Notes: a model not told the origin generated them from the sequence alone. Positions 1-25,811 are shown, counted from the stretch's first letter. The stretch is 61,340 bases of DNA from Candidatus Woesebacteria bacterium UBA5941 (GCA_002430735.1 DJCV01000004.1:25747-87086), one strand, 5' to 3'. A program made the numbers and translations.

Positions 1-12
1 TATAAGAGACAG
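1..12. other. Residual Illumina Nextera transposase mosaic-end adapter (last 12 nt of AGATGTGTATAAGAGACAG); not biological sequence
   Basis: The window begins TATAAGAGACAG. The reverse-complement 19-mer CTGTCTCTTATACACATCT sits at the opposite end (61322-61340). Confidence 0.9.
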
Positions 13-1715
13 ATATTAAAGAGTGAACTTTTAATACCAATGTTACCTGGAGCTCGCAGATTAAATGCTTTCTGGAATTCAGCACCTTCAATGGTCACAC
101 TCCCTTTATTTGTTGAAAACGTTACCGTCTGCGTTGAACCGCTATTACTGTATACAACAGAGACGCTACTTACGCTCGTGTATCCACCAATTCCTTGCAA
201 TTCGGAAACTGAATATGGATTGCCCCCAAAGCAATTATCAGGAGGGGCAACACGTCCAGTATCTCCTCCTCCCTTGGTAATAACGTGCCATCCATTTAAG
301 ATGTCTGCCATTTGTTCACTTGTTAACCATGGGTTGCTCTTTCCACAGGTTGCTCCACTGCGAGACTTAAACCACCCTTTATAAAACCATGGAGACCCTC
401 CAATTTTTTCGTACGCACCACCTGGCCAATCGCCTGAGGTATCTTTGATTCCAGACCACCCCCACTGGCTAATAGTGTAGCCTCCTGTTGATGCGGAGAA
501 AAATGTCTTTGCAGGTTGTCCATCTTTAATCATTACCCAGCCTCTGGTTGCACGAACAGCTTCAGCCCATTTACCACTTTTTAATTGTGGCTTATATACC
601 TGACATGCCTCGGTCGTACAGATGGTTCCTGCTCCGTTGTTTGTCTGAGAGAGTGCATAACTACGTGCGGCTACGGCTTGCGCCTTTAGTGCCTCAAACC
701 CACCATTGTTACCCCAACTTTCGGGCACTTCATAAATACCAAGTAAGTAGTTTTCTTCAAATGGAACACGACCAATTCCGGTTACCCCAATAGTTGCAGG
801 AACAGGAAAGTCCTTTCGAAGACTCGCGCCTTGATAATATGCCTCAAGAATTGTCTCCGCAGATTGGCCAGATTTACTGCGACCAAGTGCCCCGTATTGA
901 CTCATTCCTGTTCGGTGAGGTGCACCGAAGCTAAAGCCTGCGAATGCTGGTCGAAACCCCGGGTCACAGAAACTGGAAGTTCCCGGAGCGCCACTACAGG
1001 GATCCATTGTCGGAGGGGTATCCCCGATCGATGTTGAAAATCCACCAGCTTTTAACGCTAAGAGCTCTTCTTGTCGACCACTTAACTCAGTTAAATACGA
1101 TTCGACTTTTTTTACTTCTCCTTCTAAGAAAGTCGCGCGCTTATCAACGGAGACTTGCACAGCCGCAAGCTCTACTTTACTTTTCTCAAGTTTCTCCTTG
1201 TCAGTTCTTAAATTAGAGAGGTCTTTTCCATAGGTGTCCATGGTTTGTCGATCACCATCAACAGCTCGTTGTCTCAGGGAAATATCTAAGAACACATCTC
1301 GTGCACTATTACTCTCTAAAAAGGCTGAAAGAGGGTCATATAGTCGTATCAATTTATAGTGGTTGTGCGCCTTTTCGTCGAAGATTTTTCGGGCATAAGA
1401 CAAATCTTTATCACGCGCCGCGATTTTCCCTTCCAGTGTTTTTACTTGTTTTGTGACATTTGCGATGCGGGATTTTAAGCTGGTTATTTGTGTCTGGAGG
1501 TTTGAGAGTTCCTTTTTGTTGTTCTCATGTGCGGGAGCTAATGCCTCTGCATCTCTTTTTAGCTTTGCAATACACTCATCGATCTGTCCACCGCTTAACG
1601 CATTACTGTCACAATCTGTTTCAGCCCACGAGGAATGAAATGATGTTGCAAATAAAAGTGAGATAGACACTATAAAAAGGCTAGTCGTGAGTATAAGTCG
1701 AAGGTGTGATCGCAT
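1..1715 (-). CDS. SpoIID/LytB-domain peptidoglycan-remodelling protein with signal peptide and long coiled-coil N-region; C-terminus cut by the contig end
   Basis: Own translation of the minus strand from the ATG at 1713-1715: MRSHLRLILTTSLFIVSISLLFATSFHSSWAE..., then a heptad-rich region, then ...CTTEACQVYKPQLKSGKW...[22 protein letters not shown] (SpoIID-type SASTGG motif). The frame stays open to position 1 with no stop, which is why it is absent from the ORF track. Only short junk ORFs lie on the plus strand here. Confidence 0.7.
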   Translation of the reverse strand, partial: MRSHLRLILTTSLFIVSISLLFATSFHSSWAETDCDSNALSGGQIDECIAKLKRDAEALAPAHENNKKELSNLQTQITSLKSRIANVTKQVKTLEGKIAARDKDLSYARKIFDEKAHNHYKLIRLYDPLSAFLESNSARDVFLDISLRQRAVDGDRQTMDTYGKDLSNLRTDKEKLEKSKVELAAVQVSVDKRATFLEGEVKKVESYLTELSGRQEELLALKAGGFSTSIGDTPPTMDPCSGAPGTSSFCDPGFRPAFAGFSFGAPHRTGMSQYGALGRSKSGQSAETILEAYYQGASLRKDFPVPATIGVTGIGRVPFEENYLLGIYEVPESWGNNGGFEALKAQAVAARSYALSQTNNGAGTICTTEACQVYKPQLKSGKWAEAVRATRGWVMIKDGQPAKTFFSASTGGYTISQWGWSGIKDTSGDWPGGAYEKIGGSPWFYKGWFKSRSGATCGKSNPWLTSEQMADILNGWHVITKGGGDTGRVAPPDNCFGGNPYSVSELQGIGGYTSVSSVSVVYSNSGSTQTVTFSTNKGSVTIEGAEFQKAFNLRAPGNIGIKSSLFNICLL

Positions 1716-1790
1716 CGTTCTTGATTATACCAAGTGGATGCTAGTATCATTTGAGATTTTCTCTTAATAAAAATTTGATACACTTATAGC

Positions 1791-2618
1791 ATGAAAATAA
1801 TTCTAAAAATATTCGTTTCTTTTGCCATTTTAGGGGGCGTCACTCACCTTACAGCAAATAGTGCACTAGCCGCGTGTACCTCCAGAACAGTAGACCCCGC
1901 CTCCGGGCAAGTTGGAACGACATTTACCGTTCGTCTCGAAGGCTGTACGGCTGGTAATTATCAGGTGTCACTTTTTAAAGGAGGTCCATATCAAACATAT
2001 AGTGCTCAAAGTGTGGGTTCAAACGCGTACGTCGCAGTTATTAGTGGTCTTCCGGAAGGTACCTACTCAGCAACATATAACGAAGTTGGCCAAGGCGGTA
2101 CTTCTGTTGGAAATATCACGGTAACTCCTCAAGTAGGAGCGACAACAACGAGATTTGAATGCCAAACAGTGAACAACATGAGCTACTGCTTTAAATGCAC
2201 TTTTAACGGCACAACCAAAATTAGCTGTACTAGTCCAAGCTCTGGTGAAATGGGCAGCTGCCCAGCAGCGTGCAAATTAGTCGTTCCTGGAGGCAGTGTT
2301 GGGGTTGGAATGTCCGCAAATATTCAAGGTAGTTGCCCAGCAGATCAAATTGAAACAGGGATTGGGTGCATCCCTATTGGAAGTCCCACTGGTTTCGCTG
2401 CGTTCTTTTTGCGATGGGGATTAGGAATCGCAGGTGGAGTCGCTATGCTTGTTTTTGCATACGCTTCTTTCATGCTTATGACCTCGGCAGGTGATCCGAA
2501 AAGGCTCCAGACCGGAAAAGAGCTCCTCTTTTCTGTTATCTCAGGAATCATCATGCTTGTGTTCTCGATGTTTATTTTGAATTTACTGGGTGTAAATATC
2601 CTCGGACTTTTTGCATGA
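1791..2618 (+). CDS. Chimeric T4SS pilin-like protein P1: signal peptide, Ig-like module, Cys-rich module, C-terminal two-TM pilin domain
   Basis: Signal peptide MKIILKIFVSFAILGGVTHLTANSALA. The C-terminus reads GIGCIPIG...WGLGIAGGVAMLVFAYASFMLMTSAGDPKRLQTGKELLFSVISGIIMLVF, which is the TM-loop-TM pattern shared by all nine paralogs. Confidence 0.75.
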   Translation: MKIILKIFVSFAILGGVTHLTANSALAACTSRTVDPASGQVGTTFTVRLEGCTAGNYQVSLFKGGPYQTYSAQSVGSNAYVAVISGLPEGTYSATYNEVGQGGTSVGNITVTPQVGATTTRFECQTVNNMSYCFKCTFNGTTKISCTSPSSGEMGSCPAACKLVVPGGSVGVGMSANIQGSCPADQIETGIGCIPIGSPTGFAAFFLRWGLGIAGGVAMLVFAYASFMLMTSAGDPKRLQTGKELLFSVISGIIMLVFSMFILNLLGVNILGLFA

Positions 2619-3796
2619 GAACTACAAAAAAACAAATACTCCTTTCGATCGTATTCAGTGCTGCAGTATTTTTAGGTATTGGGAGTAAGACATTAGCCCA
2701 AGAGCCAAGTTGTGGATCGACGTTAACATTGTCCCCCGCAACAGGTGACGCAACAACTGTCTATACAATGACTGCGTCAAACTGTGTACAAAATATTGGA
2801 TATCGAATCTCAATCTTCAAAGATGGGAGTGGTGTTGAAAGCTTGCTTGCATACTCCTCCGGAGCTGAAGGATCATGGACTATCCAGTTCGGGCCACTTG
2901 CGGCAGGAACGTATGAGATACGATTCTTCAAAGAAGGTACTCCTTTTGAATACACGTCAAAAACAGTGACGGTTTCAAGCACTCCGCTTCCTGTGTCAGC
3001 TATTTGTGGCCAGGTTATTCCGATAGGTGCGAGCGTTACTTGTCCGACTGAGCCCTATTGTCCTCAAATGTCGACCGGAAGCGGACCAACAGGAGGTGCT
3101 GGCCGCTGGTGTGCATGTGGTGAGCTGAATTTTGGGTGCTGTCCAAACGGAAATAGTTTAAATAGAACTGCGTGTCAAAATGGGCTTACCTGCGAAAGCG
3201 GTGTATGCAGACTCGATGACAACAATACAGAAAAAGCAAAATATTATTGCGGTGAAATGGTTCGGCCAGAAGACGCAGGTAACTTTGAATGCATGGGGTG
3301 CCAAGCTGCGGTGCTTGATTCCCCTGGTCCTGACGGAGAGCAATATTGGTGTACCTGTGGAGGCGACTACCAGCTGTGCTGTCCAACCGCAGGAGCACAA
3401 CAGTGCGAAGGTGACTGCAATACGAAACCGGGAATTACCGATTGTAGTGGGAGCGGCCAAGCATGTGTTGGCGGAGTATGTATCATCCCCACACAGCAAA
3501 AAGTATCACTCTGTAGTGATCAAAAGTCAGTTTATACCGCCATTGGTTGTATCCCAATAGACACACTGTCTAATTTCATTTCGTTTGCACTTTCATGGGG
3601 CCTTGCTATTTCAGGCGCAGTTGCAATGCTCTCGCTTGCCGGCGCTGCATTTATGATTATGACTTCAGCAGGTGATGTTGCAAAACTTGAATCAGGGAAA
3701 CAAATGATTGTTGCAGCCGTGAGTGGAATCTTTTTCCTCGTGTTTGCTCTGTTCATATTACGTCTTATTGGAGTCAATATCTTAGGCTTATTTTAA
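2615..3796 (+). CDS. Chimeric T4SS pilin-like protein P2: signal peptide, Ig-like module, duplicated Cys-rich module, C-terminal pilin domain
   Basis: ATGA overlap with P1. The N-module is alignable with P1 (C..S..P..G...T...C...Y..S.FK.G....GTY....TVT/S). Internal repeat WCACG...CCP / WCTCG...CCP. C-terminus AIGCIPID...WGLAISGAVAMLSLAGAAFMIMTSAGDVAKLESGKQMIVAAVSGIFFLVF. Confidence 0.75.
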   Translation: MRTTKKQILLSIVFSAAVFLGIGSKTLAQEPSCGSTLTLSPATGDATTVYTMTASNCVQNIGYRISIFKDGSGVESLLAYSSGAEGSWTIQFGPLAAGTYEIRFFKEGTPFEYTSKTVTVSSTPLPVSAICGQVIPIGASVTCPTEPYCPQMSTGSGPTGGAGRWCACGELNFGCCPNGNSLNRTACQNGLTCESGVCRLDDNNTEKAKYYCGEMVRPEDAGNFECMGCQAAVLDSPGPDGEQYWCTCGGDYQLCCPTAGAQQCEGDCNTKPGITDCSGSGQACVGGVCIIPTQQKVSLCSDQKSVYTAIGCIPIDTLSNFISFALSWGLAISGAVAMLSLAGAAFMIMTSAGDVAKLESGKQMIVAAVSGIFFLVFALFILRLIGVNILGLF

Positions 3797-3808
3797 TGTC
3801 ATCATGCT

Positions 3809-3814
3809 ATACTA
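3809..3814 (+). promoter_or_regulatory. Extended -10 element (TGcTATACT) 7 nt upstream of the P3 start codon; probable leaderless transcript
   Basis: tgcTATACTaaattcacATG. There is no purine-rich SD between the -10 and the ATG at 3822. Confidence 0.4.
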
Positions 3815-3821
3815 AATTCAC

Positions 3822-4199
3822 ATGTTATCTACCATTTTAGCTCAAGGTTGTAGCGGGTTCACATTCTCTCAAGATTGTTTGCAGCAAATCGAAAACCAAG
3901 GAATTAAACCGAATAACCCAGGGTTTATTTCAACAAATGATATTGGGGATTTTTTCAATGGAAGCTATCGAATTACAAATCTCTTCTTTTTCTTTGCGGG
4001 AGGGGTCATCGCTTTTTATATTATCTCGGCTGGAATTGGATTTATGACATCACAAGGAAACCCACAAGCAGTTGCAGCGAGCAAGCAAAAACTTATTAAC
4101 GCATTTGCTGGGTTCTTCCTCCTCTTTTCTGCATACTGGATCGTGCAGTTAGCAGGAGCGATATTAGGCCTCGAAGGAATCACCCAAACATTCCAATAA
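3822..4199 (+). CDS. T4SS pilin-like protein P3 (TrbC/VirB2-like two-TM hairpin)
   Basis: N-terminus MLSTILAQ. Two hydrophobic helices flank the loop GFMTSQGNPQAVAASKQKLINAFAGFFL. Confidence 0.75.
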   Translation: MLSTILAQGCSGFTFSQDCLQQIENQGIKPNNPGFISTNDIGDFFNGSYRITNLFFFFAGGVIAFYIISAGIGFMTSQGNPQAVAASKQKLINAFAGFFLLFSAYWIVQLAGAILGLEGITQTFQ

Positions 4200-4200
4200 T

Positions 4201-4527
4201 ATGTCAGTTATTTACGCACAAGTTAATATCGGAGAGACCTTTGGCAGTCCATGGGGTGCCGAAGGTGGACTCCTCTTTGGAGATCTTTTTTCTTTAATAC
4301 TCTCAGGGGGGATTGTTGTAGGAAGTGTAATTACCGTTATTCTCTTTGTGATGGGAGGGCTCCACATGGTGCACGGAGCTGGAAGTGGTGACCCGAAGGC
4401 ATCTGCTCAAGGGAAAGAGGCTATTACGTGGGCACTGCTTGGGTTTGCAATAACATTCTCAGCATATTGGATCATTCGACTCATGCAGGACTTTTTCGGA
4501 ATACCGCTTCTTATTCAAGTAAACTAA
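4201..4527 (+). CDS. T4SS pilin-like protein P4
   Basis: N-terminus MSVIYAQ. Loop motif LHMVHGAGSGDPKASAQGKEAITWALLGFAI between two TM helices. One-nt gap from P3. Confidence 0.7.
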   Translation: MSVIYAQVNIGETFGSPWGAEGGLLFGDLFSLILSGGIVVGSVITVILFVMGGLHMVHGAGSGDPKASAQGKEAITWALLGFAITFSAYWIIRLMQDFFGIPLLIQVN

Positions 4528-4577
4528 GGCCGGAGTATTCCCTCTTTAAAAAATTCTGTATACTATTTTAGAAACAT

Positions 4578-4928
4578 ATGTATCAATTATTTGGAATTAT
4601 TAGACCCCCTGAGGGCGTTCGTGACTTTGGAACAAGCCCTGCTGAGGGAATTGGTCGTCTGATTCAACTGTTTTTCAACATATTAATCATCGCTGGAGGT
4701 ATTTATGCGGTGTTTAATTTTATTCTTGCAGGATATGCATTTTTATCAGCTGGAGATAATCCAAAAGGGATGGAAACTGCATGGGCTAAGATTTATCAAA
4801 CAATTATTGGACTAGTATTTCTCGTTGGATCATTCCTACTCTCTGCTGTAGTCGGTCTGTTAATTTTCGGCAGAGCAGACGCACTATTGAATCCAACATT
4901 AACAGTTCCTGGCGCTATTCCGTACTAA
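4578..4928 (+). CDS. T4SS pilin-like protein P5
   Basis: TM1 IAGGIYAVFNFILAGYAFLSAGDNPKGMETAWAKIYQTIIGLVFLVG TM2. TGTATACT -10-like element at 4557-4564. Confidence 0.7.
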   Translation: MYQLFGIIRPPEGVRDFGTSPAEGIGRLIQLFFNILIIAGGIYAVFNFILAGYAFLSAGDNPKGMETAWAKIYQTIIGLVFLVGSFLLSAVVGLLIFGRADALLNPTLTVPGAIPY

Positions 4929-4933
4929 ACTAA

Positions 4934-5305
4934 ATGAAAAGACTTGCAGCTGATTTTACATTTGCCCCGCCTGATGGTTTCAGTGGGCCTGGTGGAGGTG
5001 CATTTGAAAACCCTGGAGCAGATCCAGCCGGAAACTTTGAAACCTTAATTACGACTATTATTGGGGTCATGACCGTTGTTGCAGGTATTTGGTTCATCTT
5101 CGTTCTCTTTATTGGAGCAATTGGGTGGATAACGGCTGGTGGCGATAAAGGTGCAGTAGAAACTGCCCGGAAGCGTATTTCAAGCGGAATCACAGGACTT
5201 ACCGTTGTTGTAATCGCGATATTCCTCGCCAGTATGGTAGGACAATTCCTTGGGTTTGATATTCTAAATCTTGCTGAAATGATTAATGGATTAGCACCAC
5301 AATAA
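4934..5305 (+). CDS. T4SS pilin-like protein P6
   Basis: IGAIGWITAGGDKGAVETARKRISSGITGLTVVVIAIF. Close paralog of P7 and P8. Confidence 0.75.
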   Translation: MKRLAADFTFAPPDGFSGPGGGAFENPGADPAGNFETLITTIIGVMTVVAGIWFIFVLFIGAIGWITAGGDKGAVETARKRISSGITGLTVVVIAIFLASMVGQFLGFDILNLAEMINGLAPQ

Positions 5306-5311
5306 ACAGGC

Positions 5312-5653
5312 ATGTATTTCTCAACGGTATTAGCACAAGTCGGGAATCCGGTTATAACCAACGGAGAGAATGTTGATGGTATTGCTTTCTTTACAACATT
5401 TGTCGCCCGACTAATTGGAATTATTTTTGTTGTAGGGGCAATCGCCTTCTTCTTCATGTTTTTACTCGGTGCTGTTCGTTGGATAACTTCAGGTGGTGAC
5501 AAAGGACAAGTCGAATCCGCTCGAGCACAAATCACCCAGGCGCTCACAGGACTCATTGTTATGTTTAGCATTTGGGCAATTGCCACTCTCCTCGAAGAAG
5601 TACTTGGATTTAACATCTTAAGCCTCGATGTGGCCGGACTCCTCCCTCAATAA
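5312..5653 (+). CDS. T4SS pilin-like protein P7
   Basis: N-terminus MYFSTVLAQ. LLGAVRWITSGGDKGQVESARAQITQALTGLIVMFSIW. Confidence 0.75.
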   Translation: MYFSTVLAQVGNPVITNGENVDGIAFFTTFVARLIGIIFVVGAIAFFFMFLLGAVRWITSGGDKGQVESARAQITQALTGLIVMFSIWAIATLLEEVLGFNILSLDVAGLLPQ

Positions 5654-5728
5654 CATTACTTCTACTTGACGTAGTACCCTGGTATGCACCATAAATAGAG
5701 AGGAACTTTTGTATTGATATTAAAAGTT

Positions 5729-5756
5729 TTGACAACAGTGAAAATCGTGTTAAACT
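5729..5756 (+). promoter_or_regulatory. Sigma-70-like internal promoter of the pilin array (TTGACA-N16-TAAACT with TGn extension), followed by SD AAGGAGG at 5781-5787
   Basis: ttTTGACAacagtgaaaatcgTGtTAAACTatac in the only sizeable gap of the array (5654-5799). The 12-mer GTGTTAAACTAT recurs at 15973-15984. Confidence 0.5.
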
Positions 5757-5799
5757 ATACGATTTTTCATTAAATCTTTCAAGGAGGTGACACAATGAT

Positions 5800-6156
5800 A
5801 TGAATTTATTTTCTACGGTATTAGCTCAAACAACTTTTGACGTTAGCCAGGGTGCAACAGTTGGTCAAACTGGATCAGCTTTAAACGAGTTTACAATCCC
5901 AGGACTCATTAGTTTTGCTGTAACCGCGATTATTATCGTAGCAGGACTTATCTTCTTTTTCATGCTTATTATTGGAGGTCTTCGTTGGATCCTTTCAGGT
6001 GGAGACAAAGCACAAACAGAATCAGCACGAAGTCAGATTACTGCTGCGTTAATTGGACTCGTAATTATTTTCTCAGCTTGGGCGATTGTTACCCTCGTCG
6101 AGAACGTATTCGGTTTCAATGTTCTAAACTTAACATTACCAGCCTTAAACAGCTAA
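5800..6156 (+). CDS. T4SS pilin-like protein P8
   Basis: N-terminus [47 protein letters not shown]. Good SD upstream. Confidence 0.8.
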
Positions 6157-6169
6157 TAATGCAAGTTAC

Positions 6170-6199
6170 AAAAAGGTCCAGTTTTGTCTGGGCTTTTTT
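6170..6199 (+). terminator. Probable rho-independent terminator after P8
   Basis: AAAAAGGTCCAG-ttttgt-CTGGGCTTTTTT. The stem is imperfect (about 10 of 12 positions pair) and is followed by a T-run. Confidence 0.5.
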
Positions 6200-6220
6200 G
6201 TTGCCTATAAGTTAAACTTC

Positions 6221-7762
6221 GTGAATATGAAACAGAAGGCAGTGATTATTGGCGCAGGTCCTGCCGGACTTACTGCAGCATACGAATTATCAAAAACCAA
6301 CACCTTCACTCCCCTTATTCTTGAACGATCAAAGCGAGTCGGAGGATTATCCACAACAATTACATACAAAGGAAATAAGATCGACATTGGTGGACATCGT
6401 TTTTTTACAAAGTCGGATACTATCATGCAGTGGTGGCTATCATTTCTCCCAATTGAAAAGGGATACGGCAAATCTGAACTCACATACCATGGAAGGAAAC
6501 AAGCTGTTACTTCCAAGCACCTTTTTCAGAAACGAAATAAAAACGATGTAATGATGATCCGAAACAGACTTTCTCGGATATATTACAAAGGAAAGTTCTT
6601 TGAATACCCACTCGAACTTAATCTCAAAACAATACAGTCGATCGGAGTGCTTGATTCTTTCTGGTTTCTGTTTAGTTATATACAAGCGATTGTTCGCCCT
6701 ATTAAACCTGAAATTACCCTCGAAGATTTCTTTATTAACCGCTTTGGTAAAAAACTGTATGAAACGTTCTTTAAAACGTATACGGAGAAGGTTTGGGGGA
6801 AAAAATGCAGTGAAATACCTGCATTGTGGGGGAAGCAAAGAGTAAAGGGACTTTCCATGAAAAAAGCTGTTGTAAACGGAGTTTTAAAGATGATAAGGCC
6901 TCAGCACTTTAGCCCGAATAAAAAAACTGAAACCAGCCTCATTGAGAAGTTTCTTTATCCCAAGTATGGGCCAGGTCAACTGTGGAATCTCGTTTCAAAA
7001 GTAGCGAAAAAAAATGGTGCTGAGCTCAAATTTGAATCTGAAATTGAGTCGATTCACATACAGAACTCTCGAGTCTCATCCATCACATATAGAGATCGAA
7101 ACCAGAAGAAATATAAAACAGCAGCTTCTGTTGTGATATCCAGTATTTCAATACAAGAACTAGTCCCTTTGATTACCCCTCCTCCACCAAAAAAAATCTT
7201 ACAAATAGCAGCAGGACTCGAGTACCGAGATTTCTTGGTTGTTGGAATTCTTCTCAAAAAAACAACGGTAAAATTACACGACAACTGGTTGTATATTCAC
7301 GACCCAATAGTCAAGGTTGGACGAATTCAAATATTTAATAATTGGAGCCCTAGTATGGTGAAAGATAAAAAGACGGTGTGGATCGGTATGGAATATTTCA
7401 GTAATACCGATGACGATTTCTGGAAGCAAAAAGATATAGAAATTATTACCATTGCAAAAAAGGAAATTGCGGCCCTCGGGCTAGCTTCCGAAGACATGGT
7501 TATTGATGCGACTATATACAGAGCTCCAAAAGCATATCCTGCATACACTGGTAGTTACTCTCAATTCGAAGCACTAAAGAGATATCTCAACCGAATTGAG
7601 AACTTATTTTTGATCGGAAGAAACGGTATGCACAAGTACAATAATCAAGACCATTCAATGCTTACCGCAATTGAAGCGGTGAATATAATTGTTGAAAAGA
7701 GGCGTGATAAGAACTCAATTTGGGATATAAATACCGAAGAAGAATACCATGAGACTAAATAG
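6221..7762 (+). CDS. NAD(P)/FAD-dependent oxidoreductase (amine-oxidase / UDP-galactopyranose-mutase-like fold)
   Basis: N-terminal dinucleotide fold [18 protein letters not shown]...[10 protein letters not shown]. The ATG at 6227 is an alternative start. First gene of the glycosylation cassette. Confidence 0.65.
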
Positions 7763-8891
7763 TTACATTAACACAGTACTCTCCATTGTCAGCACTGTTG
7801 CCGTACTCATTGCAGGAGTACTAATTCTTAATTTATTTTATCAGTCGTATCAGACGATGCTGGTAAAAGGCAGCGTTGATTTGCGAAATCGAATAACAGG
7901 AACTCGTGTTGCGTTAACAGACCAAGATCCGTATACATACACATGGAAAGTGACCGATCCGATTGAGTGGGCAGATCCATACGCAGACCCTGTCGGGACA
8001 ACGAGTAGACTCACAGTCAGCCCAGGGTTATTACTGTTTCACCTTCCTTTATCTTATTTGAGATTTGATCAGACTATTGTGTTGTGGTTCTTTATCGAAT
8101 GGTTGGCGTTATTAATCACTGTGCTCATTTTATTAAAGTATATGCCCTCAAAGAACAAGAAGCTTCTATTTTTTGTTCTTACAACAGCCTTTACACTCAG
8201 CATCTACTGGAGGATACACATTCTCGCAGGTCAGGTATATATATTTTATGCACTCGCGAGCGCTGTGATTATGGTTTTCTTACAACGAAATAACGCGCAA
8301 AAGTTAGCAGGAATAGCGTTTGCAATCTTATGCATTGCAAGACCGCCTTATATGTTTTTGTTGGTCCCTTTTCTTGTTTTGTGGCCTCAATACAAAACAT
8401 TCATCCTGAGCTTTTTCATGTCGCTGATCAGCACTTTCATCCTAACTGGACTAGTGTTTGGATTCCCCATTTGGAGACAGTATGCTCAATCGATGATATT
8501 GCATGACGGAATTTCATCACAGAATTTGATCGAGAGAAATTATTCAACCGATATATATCCACAGTTAATTGAAAATGTTTCCTTTTTACGAGGAGACAGA
8601 CTCCCGTTACTTGAGCAAGAAGACTCGTTTAGGGGATCACTAAACAAACATTTCGGTCTCCATGCAAATGTTACAACGCTGCTATTCTTAATGGGAGCAT
8701 TCACAATACTCGCAGCGGTTTTTATATATGCACAAAAAAATATTCTTTCAATACAACATGTCTTTCTACTAGGAATAACGCTTGTATTAGTAATTGAATA
8801 TCTACTCCCCGCTAAGCATTATATGTATGCAAATATCCAATGGATTATTCCGCTCGCAATAGTAATACAACAATGGAAATCTCGATCATAG
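7749..8891 (+). CDS. Polytopic integral membrane protein, possibly a GT-C-type glycosyltransferase or flippase-like protein
   Basis: 380 aa with about 9-10 hydrophobic segments. Overlaps the upstream oxidoreductase and downstream GT2 genes (operonic). There is no diagnostic motif, so the function is inferred from context only. Confidence 0.35.
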
Positions 8892-9709
8892 TTCCATTTC
8901 TGAATGAGGAGAAATATATAAAGCGATGCGTGAAGTCGCTTCAAAGACAAACACTAAAGCGTCGAACGAAGAGTGAACTGCTCTTCATAGACAACGGGTC
9001 AACAGATAGCTCCACGGAGATTGTTCGATCGCTCGCACCAGTCAAGTTGCTTACAGAAACAAAACCAAATGTATATGCCGCTAGAAACAAAGCACTGTCT
9101 GTTGCAAAAGGAGAGATTATTGCATTTACCGATGCCGACTGCAGTGTTTCTGTAGAGTGGATCTCTACGATCCAAGAATGCTTTTCAGATCAAGCTGTTG
9201 GTATAGTAATTGGAAAAAGAGCGTTTCCAAAAACGCATGACCCGTTTTTAAAATATCTTGAAGATTACGACAATGCAAAAATGAAGTATGTTGTAACGAA
9301 TGGTGATGTGAACACATTGTTTGGGTTCACAAACAATATGGCGGTACGAAAGAGCGCGATTACCAAGGTCCGAGGATTTAAGGAACTGGAAGTAAACGGC
9401 GATACTGATTTAGTACAAAATATTGTAAAAAAAACTAAATACACGGTTATTTATAATGAGAAAATGTTGATTACCCATCTGGAAATAACAAACTGCTATC
9501 AGTGGTACAAGAAAATGTATCTTTACGGCTTTCACAACAAAACACTCTCACGGCAGACGTCATATAAAGCACTCACGATGGCAGACAATATTTCAATTTT
9601 TAAGAGAGCGTCACACAAATACACATTCAGAGAGAAAAGCATTGCACTTCTTGCTCTTGCGATCGGAATACTGTCATACAAAGCCGGCGAAATAAAGGCT
9701 TTCACATGA
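8873..9709 (+). CDS. Glycosyltransferase family 2
   Basis: [27 protein letters not shown]...FIDNGSTDSS...AFTDADC (GT-A fold, DxD). The tracked ORF starts at 8840, but the ATG at 8873 gives the canonical GT2 N-terminus. Confidence 0.75.
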   Translation: MEISIIVPFLNEEKYIKRCVKSLQRQTLKRRTKSELLFIDNGSTDSSTEIVRSLAPVKLLTETKPNVYAARNKALSVAKGEIIAFTDADCSVSVEWISTIQECFSDQAVGIVIGKRAFPKTHDPFLKYLEDYDNAKMKYVVTNGDVNTLFGFTNNMAVRKSAITKVRGFKELEVNGDTDLVQNIVKKTKYTVIYNEKMLITHLEITNCYQWYKKMYLYGFHNKTLSRQTSYKALTMADNISIFKRASHKYTFREKSIALLALAIGILSYKAGEIKAFT

Positions 9710-10707
9710 AGGTTTCAGTTGTCGTTACAATCTATAACAATGAGTCGACAATTTTGAGAGTTGTAAACGCAATTCGCAAATCTTCCTATCAAAACATTGA
9801 AATAATTTTGGTTGATGACGGAAGCACTGACAAAAGCCTAAAACTAATTACTTCAACGGCAAAGAATCAGCATGTTTTCCGACTCACTGAAAATCGTGGT
9901 CGGGTGTACGCTCGAAATTACGGCTTTGAAAAAGCAACTGGAGACATCATCGTGAACGTAGACTCAGATGTAGTTATACAAAAAAACACAATTCAAACTG
10001 TTGTTACTTATTTGACGGAACACTCTGAGGTTTCAGCAGTAACAGGACGGGTACAAAAAACAAGCGAATACGAAAACTTCGCCAGTGTCTACAAAAACCT
10101 CTATATGCATTATTATTTTGGATTGCTCCCCAAAGAGGTTAACTTTTTGTATGGGTCATTTTTTGCTATCAGAAAAACTGCCTATAAAAAAATTCCCCAC
10201 TCATCACAGGTAAAAATCGCTGATGACACATCACTCGGACAGGCTCTGATTTACGAAAATTTTACAATCCACTTAAACAAGAATCTTATGGTAAATCACT
10301 TGAAACGATTTACTCTGTGGTCGCTTATAAAGAACGACTTCACCATTAGTAGTGATTGGGCGTACTTGTTTATCCAGTATTCTGGCTGGACACAGCTTTT
10401 TAAGAAAAACACAGGATATGCGCATGCTTCAAAAGGACAAATTGCAAGCATTACTCTAATAGGAGCTGTCGTCTTTCTTCCTTTACTTTTTGCATATAGC
10501 AAAACTTTGGCGATAGGTGTGTCAATGTTCATTGGTTTACTCCTTGTATGTATAAATCGCACGTTTTTCGCGTATCTATCTTCACAACCTCTCTTGTTTT
10601 TCATCAAAGCGATTTCATGGACTATTCTCGACTATGGCATCATGCTCTGTGGAATCAGTCATGGGATTTTTAAATATATGCTCAATAAAAAGAATACCCT
10701 TGTGTGA
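9706..10707 (+). CDS. Glycosyltransferase family 2 with C-terminal transmembrane segments
   Basis: KVSVVVTIYNNESTILRVVNAIRKSSYQNIEIILVDDGSTDKS...VNVDSDV. The C-terminal ~100 aa are hydrophobic. ATGA overlap with the previous GT2. Confidence 0.75.
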   Translation: MKVSVVVTIYNNESTILRVVNAIRKSSYQNIEIILVDDGSTDKSLKLITSTAKNQHVFRLTENRGRVYARNYGFEKATGDIIVNVDSDVVIQKNTIQTVVTYLTEHSEVSAVTGRVQKTSEYENFASVYKNLYMHYYFGLLPKEVNFLYGSFFAIRKTAYKKIPHSSQVKIADDTSLGQALIYENFTIHLNKNLMVNHLKRFTLWSLIKNDFTISSDWAYLFIQYSGWTQLFKKNTGYAHASKGQIASITLIGAVVFLPLLFAYSKTLAIGVSMFIGLLLVCINRTFFAYLSSQPLLFFIKAISWTILDYGIMLCGISHGIFKYMLNKKNTLV

Positions 10708-10735
10708 GGAGGCACTGAGTCGCTACAATTGACAC

Positions 10736-11086
10736 ATGAACTTATTGGTCGTTTTAGCACAAGGCATTGTAGACAATAGCGCAAACACTCAATGCGACAC
10801 TCCTCCCTGTCCGAACACCCTCCAAGATTTTGAATCTGTCTTTGCTTCAATACTTGCCGCAATCATCCCACTTGCAGGAATCGTACTATTTGTAGTCGTT
10901 ATGCTTGCAGGATTCAACTGGATGACCGCTGGAAGCGATACAAAGAAAGCTGAATCCGCTCGAAACATGGCAACCTATGGCATTATTGGAATTACAACAC
11001 TCGCCTTGTCTTTCCTTATCTTGAGGGTTATTGCCTCATTTACCGGAATCGAAAGCTTACTTAATTTCCAGATATTCCAACCATAA
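10736..11086 (+). CDS. T4SS pilin-like protein P9 (separated from P1-P8 by the glycosylation cassette)
   Basis: N-terminus MNLLVVLAQ. VVMLAGFNWMTAGSDTKKAESARNMATYGIIGITTLALSF. Confidence 0.75.
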   Translation: MNLLVVLAQGIVDNSANTQCDTPPCPNTLQDFESVFASILAAIIPLAGIVLFVVVMLAGFNWMTAGSDTKKAESARNMATYGIIGITTLALSFLILRVIASFTGIESLLNFQIFQP

Positions 11087-11125
11087 ACACGCAATCTACT
11101 TGCGCAATAAGAAAAATATCGTGTA

Positions 11126-11134
11126 TGGTAGAAT
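11126..11134 (+). promoter_or_regulatory. Extended -10 element TGgTAGAAT upstream of the VirB6-like gene
   Basis: gtgtaTGgTAGAATagtagatttcttaaATG. It lies 14 nt before the ATG at 11149. Confidence 0.4.
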
Positions 11135-11148
11135 AGTAGATTTCTTAA

Positions 11149-12813
11149 ATGAAAAAACAATTAATTACCGTACTCACCATGCTCGTTTTAGTCGCAGGAA
11201 TGATTGCGCCATCCTCTGTTTCAGCACAAGCTGTTGGTGACACTTCAAAGTGGTGGAATATTGGGTTTAAAGATTTCTCAAACAAAGTGAACGGTGTAGA
11301 TACAAATGGTGCGGCTATTCCTGACAATGAAATTTTTGGGGAGAGATATACATTCGCTCAGGTAAACTGGATCGTTAACTCCCTTGCAATGCTGCAACTT
11401 GGTGGTGGCATGGCATCTTGTTTTGGTTCAAACCCTCCTGGAGGATCAATGGAAGCTTGTATTGAACAAGTTCAAGCACAATCAATGAGCAGTCCCCTCA
11501 TGTTCTTAGCAACAATGAACGATACAATGCTTTCAGTACGCCCAGCCTCAGGGTTAAACTACGTAGCTCAAAAAATTGACCAAGTATCCCCAATTAAAAC
11601 TGCATACGCACAAACTGGATTCGGATATAGAACTATCGCTCCACTGCAGAGGCTCTGGACGTCATTTAGAAACATTGCCTTTGGAATGACTGCGTTTGCA
11701 ATCATTATCCTAGCATTCATGATCATGTTACGACAAAAAATCTCCCCTCAAGTTGTTATTACTGCACAATCTGCATTACCAAAGCTTGCAATTGCACTCG
11801 TATTCATCACATTCTCCTATGCGATTGCTGGTCTCTTAATAGACTTCGCATACGTCGTCATGGGACTTGGTGCCGCGGTTATCGGTTCAAGTGGATTATT
11901 AAAGAGCGCTCCAAGTATTGTTGAAATCTTTGATAAAGTGAATAACCCGATCTCCGGATTCGCCGGATGGACCTTAATTTTAGGTGCCGTTCTTCTCGCT
12001 GCTCCTATCGCTGGAGCTTTCACTGGAATCATTACTGGAGGTTTGGGCGCTGTAATTGGAGCTGTTTCTGGAATTATTGCCGTTATTCTCCTTGCACTTG
12101 CATTGGTCGCAATCTTTAGAATCTTTATCACCATGCTTCGCTCTTTTGCGACCATCGTCTTCTTAGTTATTGGTGGGCCAATAATTGGGGTTATGAGTGT
12201 GCTCTCAGTCGGACCTGGTATTGGTGGATGGATTAAGCAAATGGTTGCTCAGTTATCAGTATTCGTGACTATTTGTTTAGTAATGCTTCTCTCCCACATG
12301 ATCTTCTGGACAATGTCACCTGAAGTTGACGGATGGCTTGGAGATATCGTTGTTGGTGGAGCAAATTATTATAACTTTGATACAGGTTCAATTGGCGCAG
12401 GCACAATTCAATTCCCCGGTTTCGGTGGATTCCCTGTGCAATTTATTGGCCTCTTTGTAGGGTTCGGTATTCTCTTCTCTGCTCCAAAGCTCGCACAAGG
12501 AGTTCGAGATCAAATCTTAACAGGTCGTGGAAGTTATGGCTTTGATACTTGGGGAACAATGGCAGGCCCAGTTGCCGGTGTTACCGCCGCTTCTTATGCA
12601 GCTGGTCAGAAATATGCAGGGGGATTGGCTACAACTGCATTTAATAACAGTCGTATGGGAGCAAACGTGCGGGCCGCTAGTTCACAAATGGCAAATCGAC
12701 TTACGGATATGTTTAATAGAGGTGGAGGCAGTGGGTCAACAACACAACCTGCACAAAATGCACAAAATTCTGTAAAGGCGAATAGTCGGAGTGGCCCGTA
12801 CGATAAGATTTAA
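11149..12813 (+). CDS. VirB6/TrbL-like polytopic T4SS channel protein
   Basis: Signal peptide ending VSAQ, then 554 aa with a Gly/Ala-rich multi-TM core (6 or more helices) and a hydrophilic C-tail. The size, topology and position inside a VirB4 locus fit VirB6/TrbL. There is no catalytic motif to confirm the call. Confidence 0.5.
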   Translation: MKKQLITVLTMLVLVAGMIAPSSVSAQAVGDTSKWWNIGFKDFSNKVNGVDTNGAAIPDNEIFGERYTFAQVNWIVNSLAMLQLGGGMASCFGSNPPGGSMEACIEQVQAQSMSSPLMFLATMNDTMLSVRPASGLNYVAQKIDQVSPIKTAYAQTGFGYRTIAPLQRLWTSFRNIAFGMTAFAIIILAFMIMLRQKISPQVVITAQSALPKLAIALVFITFSYAIAGLLIDFAYVVMGLGAAVIGSSGLLKSAPSIVEIFDKVNNPISGFAGWTLILGAVLLAAPIAGAFTGIITGGLGAVIGAVSGIIAVILLALALVAIFRIFITMLRSFATIVFLVIGGPIIGVMSVLSVGPGIGGWIKQMVAQLSVFVTICLVMLLSHMIFWTMSPEVDGWLGDIVVGGANYYNFDTGSIGAGTIQFPGFGGFPVQFIGLFVGFGILFSAPKLAQGVRDQILTGRGSYGFDTWGTMAGPVAGVTAASYAAGQKYAGGLATTAFNNSRMGANVRAASSQMANRLTDMFNRGGGSGSTTQPAQNAQNSVKANSRSGPYDKI

Positions 12814-12917
12814 TTAACATTTCTCTTCTTCACACCTCATACTTCGATGTTTTTTCACGCTATGCGCGTTTGTTTCCTGTGCGCAATGTGATAATGAAGA
12901 GTTATCGAAGCGGTTAC

Positions 12918-16005: not shown

Positions 16006-17112
16006 ATGTTTGAACAACATCCAGTACCTCAACAAATTAGCTCATACCAATTTCGGTTAGTTGGTGACATGACGTTAAAGCAGTTCTTTCAGCTTGCTGG
16101 CGGGGCTGTGATTGGTCTATTAATATACGCATCCCCTCTTCCTTCAATTTTTAAATGGCCGCTTATTATTTTCTTTGTCATCATGGGTGCAGCTTTTGCG
16201 TTTCTGCCCTTGCAAGAGCGCCCTCTGGAAGAGTGGATCGCAGCTTTTTTCAGAGCGATTTACGGACCGACACAATACAGTTGGGGGAAACTTGGAAAAG
16301 TTCAATACTACGCAACACCAGAGAGTGCTGTTGCAAAAACCCCGGGAGAATCATCCACGGCGCCAAGTGCAACTGTCCCACAGGAAGTATCTGTTGCAAA
16401 ACTCGAAGCGAGTGAGCATAACTTTTTAAGTAACCTCACCAATATGTTCAGCCTTCACCCAAAAACAGCGAGTGCACCACTTACCACACCTGCTGTACAA
16501 CCCACACCATCAGTCCCAGTAACACAACCAGTCACAACAACCATTCAAGCACAAGAACAGGAAATTATGGCCCGTGTTACTAATCCAACCATGCAACCGG
16601 TGCAAACGACAACACCGACCACTCCGCAACCTCTGACACCAAAAGCAGGAACACTCTTTGTGGCCACACCGGCGCAACCGGCTATTAGTATTGAGAAAAA
16701 TGCACCAGTCATTATTCCTCAAGCACCAATTGCAACACCCGTAATGACCACGGCGCCAGTTGCTCAAACACTCGTTGAAAACAAGCCAGATACCACGGTA
16801 CAGGCACAATTCTCTCCTGATGCCGCACCTCCCAGCCCTGCCACGATTCCAAACGTTATCGTTGGGCAAGTCATGACACATGACTCAAAGATTGTAGAAG
16901 GCGCTATTATGGAAATTACTGATTTCCAAGGACGGCCAGTTCGAGCACTAAAAACAAATAAGGCTGGTCATTTCATGATTGTCACTCCTCTTCCTAACGG
17001 ATCATATAAGATAAACATTGAAAAAGACGGACTTATTTTTGAACCGCTACAGTTTGAAGCTCACGGAACAATCGTTCCACCCATTGCCATCAAGGCAAAA
17101 CCTAACCAATAA
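16006..17112 (+). CDS. PrgI-family (VirB3-like) membrane protein fused to a Pro/Thr-rich linker and a C-terminal carboxypeptidase-regulatory-like beta-sandwich
   Basis: N-terminus HPVPQQISSYQFRLVGDMTLKQFFQLAGGAVIGLLIY...WPLIIFFVIMGAAFAFLPLQERPLEEWI is PrgI-like with two TMs. A long P/T/Q/A linker follows. C-terminus GQVMTHDSKIVEGAIMEITDFQGRPVRALKTNKAGHFMIVTPLPNGSYKINIEKDG. Confidence 0.65.
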   Translation: MFEQHPVPQQISSYQFRLVGDMTLKQFFQLAGGAVIGLLIYASPLPSIFKWPLIIFFVIMGAAFAFLPLQERPLEEWIAAFFRAIYGPTQYSWGKLGKVQYYATPESAVAKTPGESSTAPSATVPQEVSVAKLEASEHNFLSNLTNMFSLHPKTASAPLTTPAVQPTPSVPVTQPVTTTIQAQEQEIMARVTNPTMQPVQTTTPTTPQPLTPKAGTLFVATPAQPAISIEKNAPVIIPQAPIATPVMTTAPVAQTLVENKPDTTVQAQFSPDAAPPSPATIPNVIVGQVMTHDSKIVEGAIMEITDFQGRPVRALKTNKAGHFMIVTPLPNGSYKINIEKDGLIFEPLQFEAHGTIVPPIAIKAKPNQ

Positions 17113-17114
17113 CA

Positions 17115-17813
17115 ATGCCGGTAATTGATAAACTATTTGCAAAAATCCCACTCCTCAATACGCCTGATCAGCCAATTATTCGGCCGACTCAAGATGTTGT
17201 TCCAATTGCTGACATCGTAGATGACATTGTTTTGTACAAAGACGGAGGTGCAGCTTTGGTTCTTGAAACGTCTTCGCTCAACTTCGGACTTCTTTCAGAA
17301 CGAGAGCAAGAAGCAGTTATCGCTGCGTTTGCTGCACTTATTAACAGTTTGTCTTTTGCAGTACAAATAACTGTCCGAACACAGCGAAAAAACATTGGGA
17401 GCTACCTTGCATATCTTGATGGAAAGATTGAAGAAATGAAAAATCCAAAACTGAAAACACTCATGATTAACTACAAAACGTTTATTTCAGATACGATTCG
17501 AAAACGAAATGTGTTAGGAAAGAGATTTTTTATGGTCATTCCATTTTCTCCACTAGAACTTGGATTTTCAAAAGGAATGATTCCAGGGGTTAAACAACAG
17601 GTGATCCTCCCTTATACTGAGGACTACATTTTAAAGAAAGTTAAAACGACTCTTTATCCAAAACGAGACCATTTAATTAGACAGTGCGCACGACTCGGAC
17701 TTCGAGCAACACAAATGAGAAGAAATGAACTTATCCATCTGTATTACGATATTTATAATCCAGACGTTGAAGCGGTGAGAGAACAACCTGAAGCAAAAGA
17801 ACCAATAGAATGA
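17115..17813 (+). CDS. Hypothetical protein resembling a stand-alone VirB4 N-terminal domain
   Basis: VVPIADIVDDIVLYKDGGAALVLETSSLNFGLLSEREQEAVIAAFAALINSLSFAVQITVRT... parallels the N-domain of the following VirB4 (VIAPQDIEVNFDHIRVGNVYYRTLFVAGYPRFV...LDISFYLYPV). Overlaps virB4 by 4 nt. Confidence 0.45.
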   Translation: MPVIDKLFAKIPLLNTPDQPIIRPTQDVVPIADIVDDIVLYKDGGAALVLETSSLNFGLLSEREQEAVIAAFAALINSLSFAVQITVRTQRKNIGSYLAYLDGKIEEMKNPKLKTLMINYKTFISDTIRKRNVLGKRFFMVIPFSPLELGFSKGMIPGVKQQVILPYTEDYILKKVKTTLYPKRDHLIRQCARLGLRATQMRRNELIHLYYDIYNPDVEAVREQPEAKEPIE

Positions 17814-25500: not shown

Positions 25501-25811
25501 TTGCAGCCGCGTGGATTTTGTCCGCAGGATATCCACCGAATCTCCTTACCCCACAGCCTGGATATAACGTTGTTAATAGCCCTGAACCTGGATCATGGAC
25601 CATGACAGACATGCAAAGAGCAATTTCAAAGTGGGTAAACGGGTATTTGGATAACACGAGCCAAATTTGTGAGACACGACCAGCACTTCTCCCCGCAGCA
25701 GCTTGCTTTACAGAATCATACTGTGCGCAACTCTTAAGACATAACAACACAATTAAGACTGACTGCAACGCGAAACCAAGTGGAAGTGGTGTCGATATTC
25801 CGTCCTGTTAA
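22536..25811 (+). CDS. Large secreted Cys-rich protein with C-terminal lytic-transglycosylase (SLT/VirB1-like) domain
   Basis: Signal peptide MKKAILFSFFIFFSFFAGQITSSALTIKAQ. The C-terminal region reads AAKWARIPVELLTMVVEKEGCGYF...SRASGPMQIINGIFNNW...IKDSIFAAAWIL. This fits the SLT layout: catalytic Glu (25260-25268), then G.MQI (25392-25406), then a hydrophobic helix. Confidence 0.6.
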   Translation: MKKAILFSFFIFFSFFAGQITSSALTIKAQTPPEQSGDFAACVGAALAKYFQDVLVGTRGLDKIKILSPAFNLTNPIEFDMFYVMKSGPNGEFFKPQNYGNFFGFAGNTYSIGGVKAYDWFASPEITGRNWKGETVGAYAGTQMIFTEFGDFDTFGDGAGLGVPGSARGTIIGNLATEYGRSSNDGSIAAINFFAAMQSYSNPEFRGHNLTNSEIGQVVGAGSAAKAGQNPGLFVAGESLPQAVQSNGLPNGWVLDIVGGPGDLDSATRFVNTAHSLGYNPILRTCVGNKCGFAEPSIYVSFLRSLNAVITGPVWVIAGPNEPATEHWAAPACAPEGKKFELDEVPCNATQEPEFHSLRPYPTNPCNKQVEQAYYMCGQDLVVKDTYEFQDGGGQCEDLPGGGRRCRYTIEGQTSQVSLGLLNANLPILGNTEGVPNSTNSELPEESRSTIDFKQRVNEYVSWYLNGIPYRAEEKTDSIQNQVIGEMNIYDKIINLAGPLKKLLPRPIQTAERSNEKDRIGIEGEIGRHNQIAECGTPNAPEQCYTDSNQYQRITNLVQAGPNTRGFPYLPFSSTEDRLGLATSGLRFGAPSCADGNPNADDIESGITCIDYESENTSKELYFAHVDESNELGRMLQNTYKPFSVNDAGTAPKEGLAELIDTPYCELIEARTNPGDKLYGELVRPGDTETKPISGTLTYSANFTCDFPSPDPEQVALCMTGCEDLPADAQAQCELDCNNTSNTCLREVFVPFSVTVTSPGFENIWERFVAGSMSIVKRIFPLVGPNAPIVKLEDIPGKSGATYRSQVISGNPELLTSEALAGDPNKNRPGVTAEIYFPHLGSVYDYFLKGIQTALRPYGIKEEDTGQVIPPAVCTIENANFRSQALLNIISQAAKWARIPVELLTMVVEKEGCGYFGSPNGICGLSDGEVEQYSAPGAQYPRNCVQGISRASGPMQIINGIFNNWSTAVNQGTGDTRTPNNCNIKDSIFAAAWILSAGYPPNLLTPQPGYNVVNSPEPGSWTMTDMQRAISKWVNGYLDNTSQICETRPALLPAAACFTESYCAQLLRHNNTIKTDCNAKPSGSGVDIPSC

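Follow-up and report, generated by a model that had tools for sequence, protein, structure and literature searches.

Type IV secretion systems (T4SSs) with arrays of pilin genes are known from Patescibacteria, and these are the closest described systems to the one considered here. A survey of 3,035 Patescibacteria genomes with the families PF18895 and PF04956 found 441 arrays of 2–11 pilin genes, with a mean identity of 25% and a maximum of 54% (Quinonero-Coronel et al. 2025, PMC12102498). The arrays are most abundant in Microgenomatia, one of the two richest classes, and sit in T4SS clusters that often adjoin dnaA and lack relaxases; monoderm systems of the mating pair formation class FATA (MPF-FATA) are not known to make pili (PMC12102498). 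In Southlakia epibionticum, transposon sequencing (Tn-seq) found the T4SS cluster, including the pilin series, to be essential (Wang et al. 2023, PMC10633639). All six array genes, SEML1_0014–0019, scored GD/ES/ES, meaning that growth was impaired at the first time point and that the genes counted as essential at both later time points (PMC10633639). Epibiotic growth requires the T4SS in the single Patescibacterial species in which this was tested (PMC10633639, PMC11665869). A 2025 review calls the array "remarkable" and the most unusual feature of the T4SS, and speculates on a pilus on a monoderm (PMC12857230).

Here we describe an array of nine pilin-like genes, P1 to P9, in a stretch of 61,340 nucleotides (nt) from Candidatus Woesebacteria bacterium UBA5941 (GCA_002430735.1, DJCV01000004.1:25747-87086), referred to in full as the window. 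The array is a clear instance of the published VirB2-like pilin array, and its kind is already known. What the comparison with relatives adds is a set of modest refinements: an orthology by position over eight positions, a promoter embedded in a pilin gene, a minimal N-terminus with an LAQ-type motif, and fusions of several hairpins. The fixed order of eight positions, the internal promoter and the short LAQ N-terminus were not found in the searchable main text of PMC10633639, PMC12102498 or PMC12857230.

All nine open reading frames (ORFs) named in an initial annotation of the window are present on the + strand at the starts it gave, and the loop-to-helix strings quoted there match the translations exactly. 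Lengths are in amino acids (aa).

1791..2618, + strand: P1, long pilin, 275 aa, array position 1 copy a; PF18895 E = 6.3e-5
2615..3796, + strand: P2, long pilin, 393 aa, array position 1 copy b; PF18895 E = 0.01
3822..4199, + strand: P3, short pilin, 125 aa, array position 2
4201..4527, + strand: P4, short pilin, 108 aa, array position 3
4578..4928, + strand: P5, short pilin, 116 aa, array position 4
4934..5305, + strand: P6, short pilin, 123 aa, array position 5
5312..5653, + strand: P7, short pilin, 113 aa, array position 6
5800..6156, + strand: P8, short pilin, 118 aa, array position 7; candidate major subunit
10736..11086, + strand: P9, short pilin, 116 aa, array position 8

The first eight genes are contiguous, and P9 lies 4.5 kb further downstream. 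PF18895 (T4SS_pilin) is the top Pfam family for each of the nine proteins independently, with E-values from 3e-10 to 0.01. Measured against the gathering cut-off of 26.6 bits, P8 (40.3), P3 (33.0), P7 (30.5) and P4 (29.6) are above it and P6 (26.5), P9 (26.5), P1 (23.4), P5 (22.3) and P2 (16.3) are below. The assignment to the T4SS pilin family made from the sequence is upheld by these matches and by the clustering with genes for PrgI-like, TrsD-like and CD1110-type VirB4 proteins. A hidden Markov model (HMM) built from the nine C-termini, run in six frames over the whole window, recovered the same nine genes and no tenth copy, the next match having E = 0.65. Over the C-terminal 95 aa the paralogs average about 25% identity in the pairwise matrix, most pairs falling at 17–28%; the closest pairs are P1–P2 (54%, the maximum), P7–P8 (51%) and P6–P7 (43%). 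A search with P8 found 752 homologs, and those whose source is named come from Woesebacteria/Microgenomates. PF18895 was also the top family in 67 of 67 homologs, and the family of this type is very large (78,790 clusters at 50% identity, E ≤ 1e-3).

To place the array among its relatives, one genome per species was scanned with the P8 family as query, giving 80 loci, each with flanks of up to 10 kb to either side. Full flanks are available for 43 of them, and counts of neighboring genes below refer to these 20-kb loci. Exactly eight pilin-domain ORFs were found in 51 of the 80 loci, and 6–11 in 41 of the 43 with full flanks. The initial annotation had presented the array as unusual and rapidly diversifying; these counts and the published arrays (PMC12102498, PMC10633639, PMC12857230) do not sustain that view. 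We then took the best BLASTP match of each window protein in the 51 eight-gene arrays, with positions counted from the upstream end. Both P1 and P2 have their best match at position 1 in 51/51, P3 at position 2 in 39/51, P4 at position 3 in 50/51, P5 at position 4 in 49/51, P6 at position 5 in 43/51, P7 at position 6 in 38/51, P8 at position 7 in 50/51, and P9 at position 8 in 51/51. When all array proteins are compared with one another, 392 of 408 have their best match from another genome at the same position. Because so many best matches keep their position, the paralogs are shown to be old and separately maintained lineages, and the array to be an ancient ordered set of eight distinct subunits. 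P6–P8 had been taken for recent tandem duplicates, a reading we can drop: they are 34–51% identical, and each has a positional ortholog in dozens of genomes. By the same matches, P1 and P2 are duplicates of position 1, the only recent event in the paralog set of this genome. Copy-number change in the relatives is likewise concentrated in the long pilins (at least 180 aa, with a median of 12 Cys) at the front of the array. No degenerate pilin paralog was found in the related loci scanned, so the possibility that all but one of the paralogs are disabled in relatives does not hold. Several metagenome-assembled genomes among these loci (L007, L011, L013, L015, L016 and others) are titled "uncultured Gammaproteobacteria bacterium" and carry Patescibacterial PF18895 arrays in the same synteny, which appears to be a labeling problem of the public records.

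The genes of the array are tightly packed. At one extreme P1 and P2 overlap by 4 nt, and at the other the gap is 50 nt, apart from the 146 nt ahead of P8; the spacing is consistent with co-transcription. The exceptional gap holds one further feature:

5729..5756, + strand: sigma70-like promoter, TTGACA-16 nt-TG-TAAACT, in the 146-nt gap before P8

This is the best-scoring promoter-like site in the 11.5 kb scanned (1500-13000), and it is followed, upstream of P8, by the only canonical Shine–Dalgarno sequence of the array (AAGGAGGTGA). Among the relatives, 47 of 51 arrays have a site with at least 10 of 12 consensus positions in the 160 nt preceding the position-7 gene, as against 2–8 of 51 at the other positions. 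There, a near-consensus TTGACA-N18-xATAAT sits inside the last ~35 nt and the stop codon of the position-6 gene (L013–L047 and other eight-gene loci), under the peptide L-D-I-G-P-L-x-I-Q-stop. The Asp codon within it is GAC in 30 of 32 cases, compared with 33% in other pilin genes; the stop is TAA in 43/51, and the base after the stop is T in 39/51 compared with 33%. We infer selection at the nucleotide level on the embedded promoter because of this bias in codon use. The -10 element in the relatives ends 4–17 nt ahead of the position-7 start codon, and therefore a nearly leaderless transcript is implied. The window differs from the relatives in that its promoter lies in the 146-nt spacer with a Shine–Dalgarno sequence and is not embedded in the position-6 gene. 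These features suggest that the P8 lineage, and probably P9 with it, has a transcript of its own and is transcribed at a higher level than the rest, as expected of a major subunit.

Most of the array genes lack a Shine–Dalgarno sequence, and hexamers resembling TATACT or TATAGC lie a few bases 5' of the ATG (1770-1790, 3800-3821, 4557-4577). The context before P3, TATACTAAATTCAC-ATG, is an example. Many genes of this genome may be expressed from transcripts with a very short leader or none.

The initial annotation described a shared C-terminal cassette of two transmembrane (TM) segments joined by a loop, and this was borne out by TM prediction, by the PF18895 matches in 9/9 proteins, and by the HMM scan that returned the nine alone. 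Every one of the proteins has two hydrophobic helices predicted as TM segments, with a polar loop [ST]-x-G-[DGNS]...[KR] between them. In the AlphaFold2 (AF2) model, P8 folds into a helical hairpin (H33-65/H70-104) whose core has a predicted local distance difference test score (pLDDT) above 90, preceded by 32 unstructured N-terminal residues. The short pilins P3–P9 have neither a Sec signal peptide nor a hydrophobic leader. Their N-terminal tails are 23–53 residues long, net acidic, and contain 0–3 K/R; the hairpin loops carry 2–4 K/R, and the C-terminal tails are almost uncharged. By the positive-inside rule, basic segments face the cytoplasm. Because of this charge distribution and that rule, the N- and C-termini would lie outside the cell and the basic loop in the cytoplasm. 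An alternative genetic code that would extend the short N-termini was set aside, because ORFs of up to 1091 aa are normal under table 11 and the starts of the short pilins are immediately preceded by in-frame stops.

The N-terminal parts, reported from the sequence as unrelated, are so only in part. P3, P4, P7, P8 and P9 begin with a common M-x(2-6)-[VI]-[LY]-A-Q (3822-3845, 4201-4221, 5312-5341, 5800-5829, 10736-10765) with the variable segment after it, and P1 and P2 share a beta-sandwich domain. Among 120 homologs of P8, the pattern [VILFT][LFY]AQ occurs within the first 20 residues in 64 and later in the protein in none. At other array positions, variants such as MKLAQ and MNKLAD are found repeatedly. 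As a putative processing site, the motif resembles the c-region of a signal-peptidase site without the hydrophobic core; genuine VirB2 leaders end in an invariant A-x-A-Q, and the leader of P2 ends in TLA-Q. That the N-terminal parts are hypervariable is confirmed. Positional orthologs are 40–56% identical to the window proteins overall, with 8–27% in the N-terminal regions and 38–67% in the TM1-loop-TM2 cores.

Among the nine, Sec signal peptides and many cysteines are restricted to the long pilins. P1 has a Sec-type signal peptide, an ectodomain with a beta-sandwich and a Cys-rich part (10 Cys), a TAIGCIPI-like motif, and the hairpin cassette; its TM segments are at 3-21, 204-222 and 245-263. 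P2 has a classical signal peptide and an ectodomain with 26 Cys, and a conserved motif of the TAIGCIPI type precedes its hairpin. The two are 56% identical in the cassette and 27% over ~100 aa of the N-terminal domain (E = 9e-6). The AF2 model of P2 contains the signal-peptide helix, a beta-sandwich at 34-120 and the hairpin H318-349/H355-392; its mean pLDDT is 59 and the Cys-rich middle is unmodelled, leaving the beta-sandwich and the hairpin as the usable parts. In Foldseek the beta-sandwich has weak FN3-like matches (E ~0.01). Other genomes encode long homologs of 218–508 aa that have PF18895 at their C-terminus. Some family members string 2, 6 or 17 hairpin modules together in one polypeptide, among them P0140 (552 aa), P0144 (1775 aa) and P0156 (228 aa). 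They look like genuine fusions and not read-through artefacts, because their junctions lack the LAQ start motif.

We lean slightly towards the following explanation. The nine genes would encode PF18895 subunits of a chromosomal, origin-proximal, monoderm-type (MPF-FATA-derived) Patescibacterial T4SS, each inserted as a helical hairpin with both termini outside and the basic loop in the cytoplasm. The paralogs would be non-redundant and would co-assemble into one structure on the T4SS, and not be interchangeable variants, because all lineages are kept in a fixed order and the six S. epibionticum genes are essential. Tight operon packing and the natural hairpin fusions of 2, 6 and 17 modules are also counted for co-assembly. 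The P8 lineage would be the main building block because it matches the family best and because a conserved promoter of its own and the only Shine–Dalgarno sequence of the array precede it. The remaining short paralogs would be accessory or minor subunits, the long P1/P2 type would make the host contact by displaying its beta-sandwich and Cys-rich ectodomain toward the host cell, and the fast-evolving N-terminal segments would form the exposed surface. Among the functional options listed in the initial annotation, a heteropolymer with minor or tip pilins fits best, and alternative filaments or antigenic variation fit worst.

In its boldest form, the proposal is that the eight lineages build one heteromeric surface filament of defined composition on a monoderm cell, with P8 as separately promoted major subunit, obligatory minor subunits processed at a minimal L-A/Q leader, and the Sec-exported Cys-rich long pilin as a tip that binds the host. 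We offer this tentatively and regard it as doubtful in all its parts together. The VirB2-type pili known so far consist of one kind of subunit and carry VirB5 at the tip. If true, the heteromeric filament would be an architecture unprecedented among VirB2-type pili and the structure by which Patescibacteria tap their hosts.

Several points weigh against co-assembly into a pilus-like structure. To our knowledge, no Patescibacterial T4SS has been seen to form a filament, and extracellular filament formation by these proteins is what their features would suggest, at one remove. Of the two models with which the initial annotation had proposed to search, T4SS_pilin came out on top in all nine proteins and PF04956 (TrbC/VirB2) was matched by 0/9 at E ≤ 1. 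Direct homology to VirB2/TrbC is not claimed, because in hhalign 67 family members compared with eight plasmid VirB2/TrbC proteins gave a probability of 1.2% over 17 columns. A Foldseek search of the P8 hairpin against the PDB returned generic hairpins and no pilin, with a best E = 3.2; a sequence-profile search of the PDB found no pilin either, and both searches are uninformative. The promoter calls are consensus matches only, and the higher conservation of P8 is biased by the choice of loci with the P8 family as query. Essentiality of small operon genes in Tn-seq can reflect polar effects, and a membrane ring would account for the poly-hairpin fusions no less well than a filament.

Such a ring is the alternative that survives best. 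The hairpins would form a membrane-embedded ring or channel of the monoderm T4SS, c-ring-like or associated with VirB3/VirB6, and would not be extracellular pilins; the N-terminal tails and the P1/P2 ectodomains would merely decorate the outer face of the membrane. We consider this unlikely, and still a serious contender. The lack of detectable VirB2/TrbC homology agrees with it, as do the generic hairpins returned by Foldseek, which include ATP-synthase c subunits (E = 4.5–9.3), and the single polypeptides with 6 and 17 tandem hairpins in the family. Rotor rings are formed by multiplied c subunits, which the poly-hairpin proteins recall. That monoderm MPF-FATA systems are not known for pili (PMC12102498) also agrees with it. 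The bridges from the family to recognized pilins, weak as they are, count on the other side: TrbC/VirB2 is matched in 9 of 67 homologs (best E = 0.0043) and CagC in 3 of 67, and two S. epibionticum array members match PF04956 at ~1e-6 in the authors' table (PMC10633639). The top NCBIfam match for all nine window proteins, below its cut-off, is NF045849, the Mbov_0395 pilin-like conjugal transfer protein of Mycoplasma integrative and conjugative elements (ICEs). Because of this match to a Mycoplasma ICE family, the sequences hint that the hairpin may be native to monoderm MPF-FATA systems and not borrowed from diderm ones. Eight distinct conserved types, one with a large adhesin-like ectodomain, also come closer to a division of labor between major and minor pilins than to a ring.

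It is distinctly improbable that the paralogs are interchangeable pilins, each forming its own homopolymeric filament and serving antigenic or host-range variation, as proposed for VirB2 of Bartonella and Anaplasma and put forward for Patescibacteria in PMC12102498. The exposed N-terminal segments are highly divergent both between paralogs and between orthologs, the copy number varies from 6 to 11 between genomes, and adaptation to different host strains is favored in the published discussion (PMC12102498). However, the positional orthology of 392/408 proteins indicates old maintained lineages without turnover, and the copy-number change falls mostly on the long pilins, which head the array. 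The packed and overlapping genes fit co-transcription, and six of six S. epibionticum array genes are essential. The P8 sequence is also found in contigs of Joint Genome Institute (JGI) sample 3300005689 and, among other records, in GCA_002430615.1, an assembly (DJCP01) that was not found in two supplementary files of PMC12102498. Six copies of the locus fetched from different samples are 99.955–100% identical to the window and carry all nine genes in intact form. Strain-level variation, which the initial annotation had proposed to look for in population metagenomes, is not seen among these six copies (at least 99.95% identity), which argues against antigenic or phase-type variation.

Finally, that the cassette is an unrelated small membrane family (holin, bacteriocin-immunity protein or cytochrome oxidase subunit) lying near a T4SS by coincidence can be given almost no weight, since the naming of some JGI homolog records as "cbb3-type cytochrome oxidase subunit 3" and scattered weak matches of single proteins to unrelated TM families stand against PF18895 on top in 9/9 window proteins and 67/67 homologs, a synteny with VirB6-like, PrgI-like and VirB4 genes kept across 43 genomes, and the absence of any PHROGs match at E ≤ 0.1 to a family with an assigned function, holins included, on which ground we reject a holin, phage or immunity identity.

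The genes around the array are as follows.

3..1715, - strand: SpoIID/LytB-domain protein, 571 aa; TIGR02669 SpoIID_LytB E = 1.7e-30, coiled-coil N-terminal half
6221..10707, + strand: glycosylation-type block between P8 and P9, by Pfam matches
11149..12813, + strand: polytopic membrane protein, 554 aa; signal peptide and ~7 TM segments predicted
12918-15158, - strand: 746-aa protein inside the T4SS cluster; no family match
16006..17112, + strand: PrgI/VirB3-like protein, 368 aa; PF12666 PrgI 28.1 bits, cut-off 27
17115..17813, + strand: TrsD-like protein, 232 aa; NF041427 TrsD E = 1.2e-5, sub-threshold
17810..19735, + strand: VirB4-like ATPase, CD1110 family (monoderm MPF-FATA); NF045971 385 bits, cut-off 325
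22536..25811, + strand: secreted protein, 1091 aa; N-terminal signal-like TM segment

Downstream of the array and on the same strand are the 554-aa membrane protein and the PrgI/VirB3-like, TrsD-like and VirB4 genes, virB4 starting 6.7 kb downstream of P9. The VirB4-like ATPase also matches the TraG P-loop family PF19044 (E = 2.9e-30), and the PrgI-like gene lies within the flank in 30/43 relatives. The T4SS genes are followed by dnaN and dnaA (at 25.8–28.6 kb), rnpA, yidC and jag, which places the locus at the replication origin of a bacterial chromosome. The host is a Woesebacteria-like member of Microgenomatia with a chromosome of ~942 kb. Pfam scans of 50 window proteins, several large ones of which are unannotated, found no relaxase or coupling-protein domain. 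A DprA gene at 50708-51382 (+) is consistent with natural competence in the lineage.

A homolog of the SpoIID-like gene is on the minus strand upstream of the array, divergent from it, in 40/43 relatives; in locus L001 it is annotated as a SpoIID gene of 571 aa. It may be a cell-wall-remodeling (VirB1-like) partner of the T4SS and is a candidate for that component, which is mostly missing in the published survey (PMC12102498). A non-coding nature of the region 1-1790 was rejected: its ORF-free look reflects the SpoIID-like gene, which runs to the edge of the window. The 554-aa protein has a homolog downstream of the array in 40/43 relatives and no match in Pfam or NCBIfam; it is a candidate for a divergent VirB6/PrgH analog, VirB6 being scarce in Microgenomatia (PMC12102498). 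The 1091-aa protein has homologs in 36/43 relatives with a median start just past the last pilin gene, and its gene has been relocated behind virB4 in this window. Homologs of the 746-aa minus-strand gene are present in 3/43 relatives only.

The block at 6221-10707 consists of genes for a FAD amine-oxidase-like protein, a GT87-like membrane protein and two GT2 glycosyltransferases. None of the 43 related full loci carries the four-gene block between positions 7 and 8; for two of its genes these loci contain no match at all, and for the two GT2 genes the only match is in one locus, at another position. By this comparison of gene content, the block is shown to be a lineage-specific insertion that splits the array. 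It could modify the pilins or the cell surface by glycosylation, or it could be an unrelated insertion.

Among known systems, type IV pili and type II pseudopili offer a functional analogy, in having an abundant subunit with conserved non-redundant minor ones, a larger one of which is adhesive; they differ in their unrelated fold, their class III signal cleaved by PilD, and their other machinery. The VirB2 paralogs of Bartonella, Anaplasma and Rickettsia are alike in being tandem divergent pilin genes in a T4SS locus, for which surface variation has been proposed. They differ in belonging to PF04956 and to diderm intracellular pathogens and in being read as antigenic variants, whereas the window paralogs are ancient, keep their positional orthology across a whole class, and do not vary between samples.

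The TrbC/VirB2 pilins (PF04956) of the T-pilus, RP4 and F-type systems share with the window proteins a small two-helix hairpin with a polar loop, the proximity to VirB3 and VirB4, and the end of the leader, A-x-A-Q in VirB2 and L-A-Q here. TrbC/VirB2 pilins assemble with phospholipid into an extracellular pilus, and some of them are cyclised. There is no significant sequence or profile similarity, and the seven short proteins of the window lack the long Sec-type leader. Those systems have one subunit type and the present one has eight; the host here is a monoderm; and no VirB5 was found here by Pfam and NCBIfam scans of the cluster proteins. Another comparison is with the Mycoplasma ICE family NF045849 (Mbov_0395/MMCAP2_0565), from a monoderm MPF-FATA-type system. 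Its match spans the whole hairpin, and the VirB4 model of the Mycoplasma ICE also matches the VirB4 and TrsD-like proteins of the window. The window matches reach 9–24 bits against a cut-off of 40, and the Mycoplasma protein is described as a single family with no array.

To the Patescibacterial arrays there is no essential difference. The Pfam family, the PrgI/VirB3-like, TrsD-like and VirB4 neighbors, and the proximity to dnaA are the same, and likewise no relaxase or coupling protein is recognized nearby. The divergence is alike (~25% mean, 54% maximum), and the nine genes fall within the reported range of 2–11. Specific to the window are the duplicated position 1, the split of the array by 4.5 kb of glycosyltransferase genes, and the relocated 1091-aa gene. 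The window thus reveals no new kind of system, and the comparison sharpens a question about the Patescibacterial T4SS. With an ordered set of eight non-interchangeable subunits, one of them separately promoted, the role of each position becomes a more useful question than why there is so much variation, and the eight ordered positions are concrete targets for deletion, tagging and structural work.

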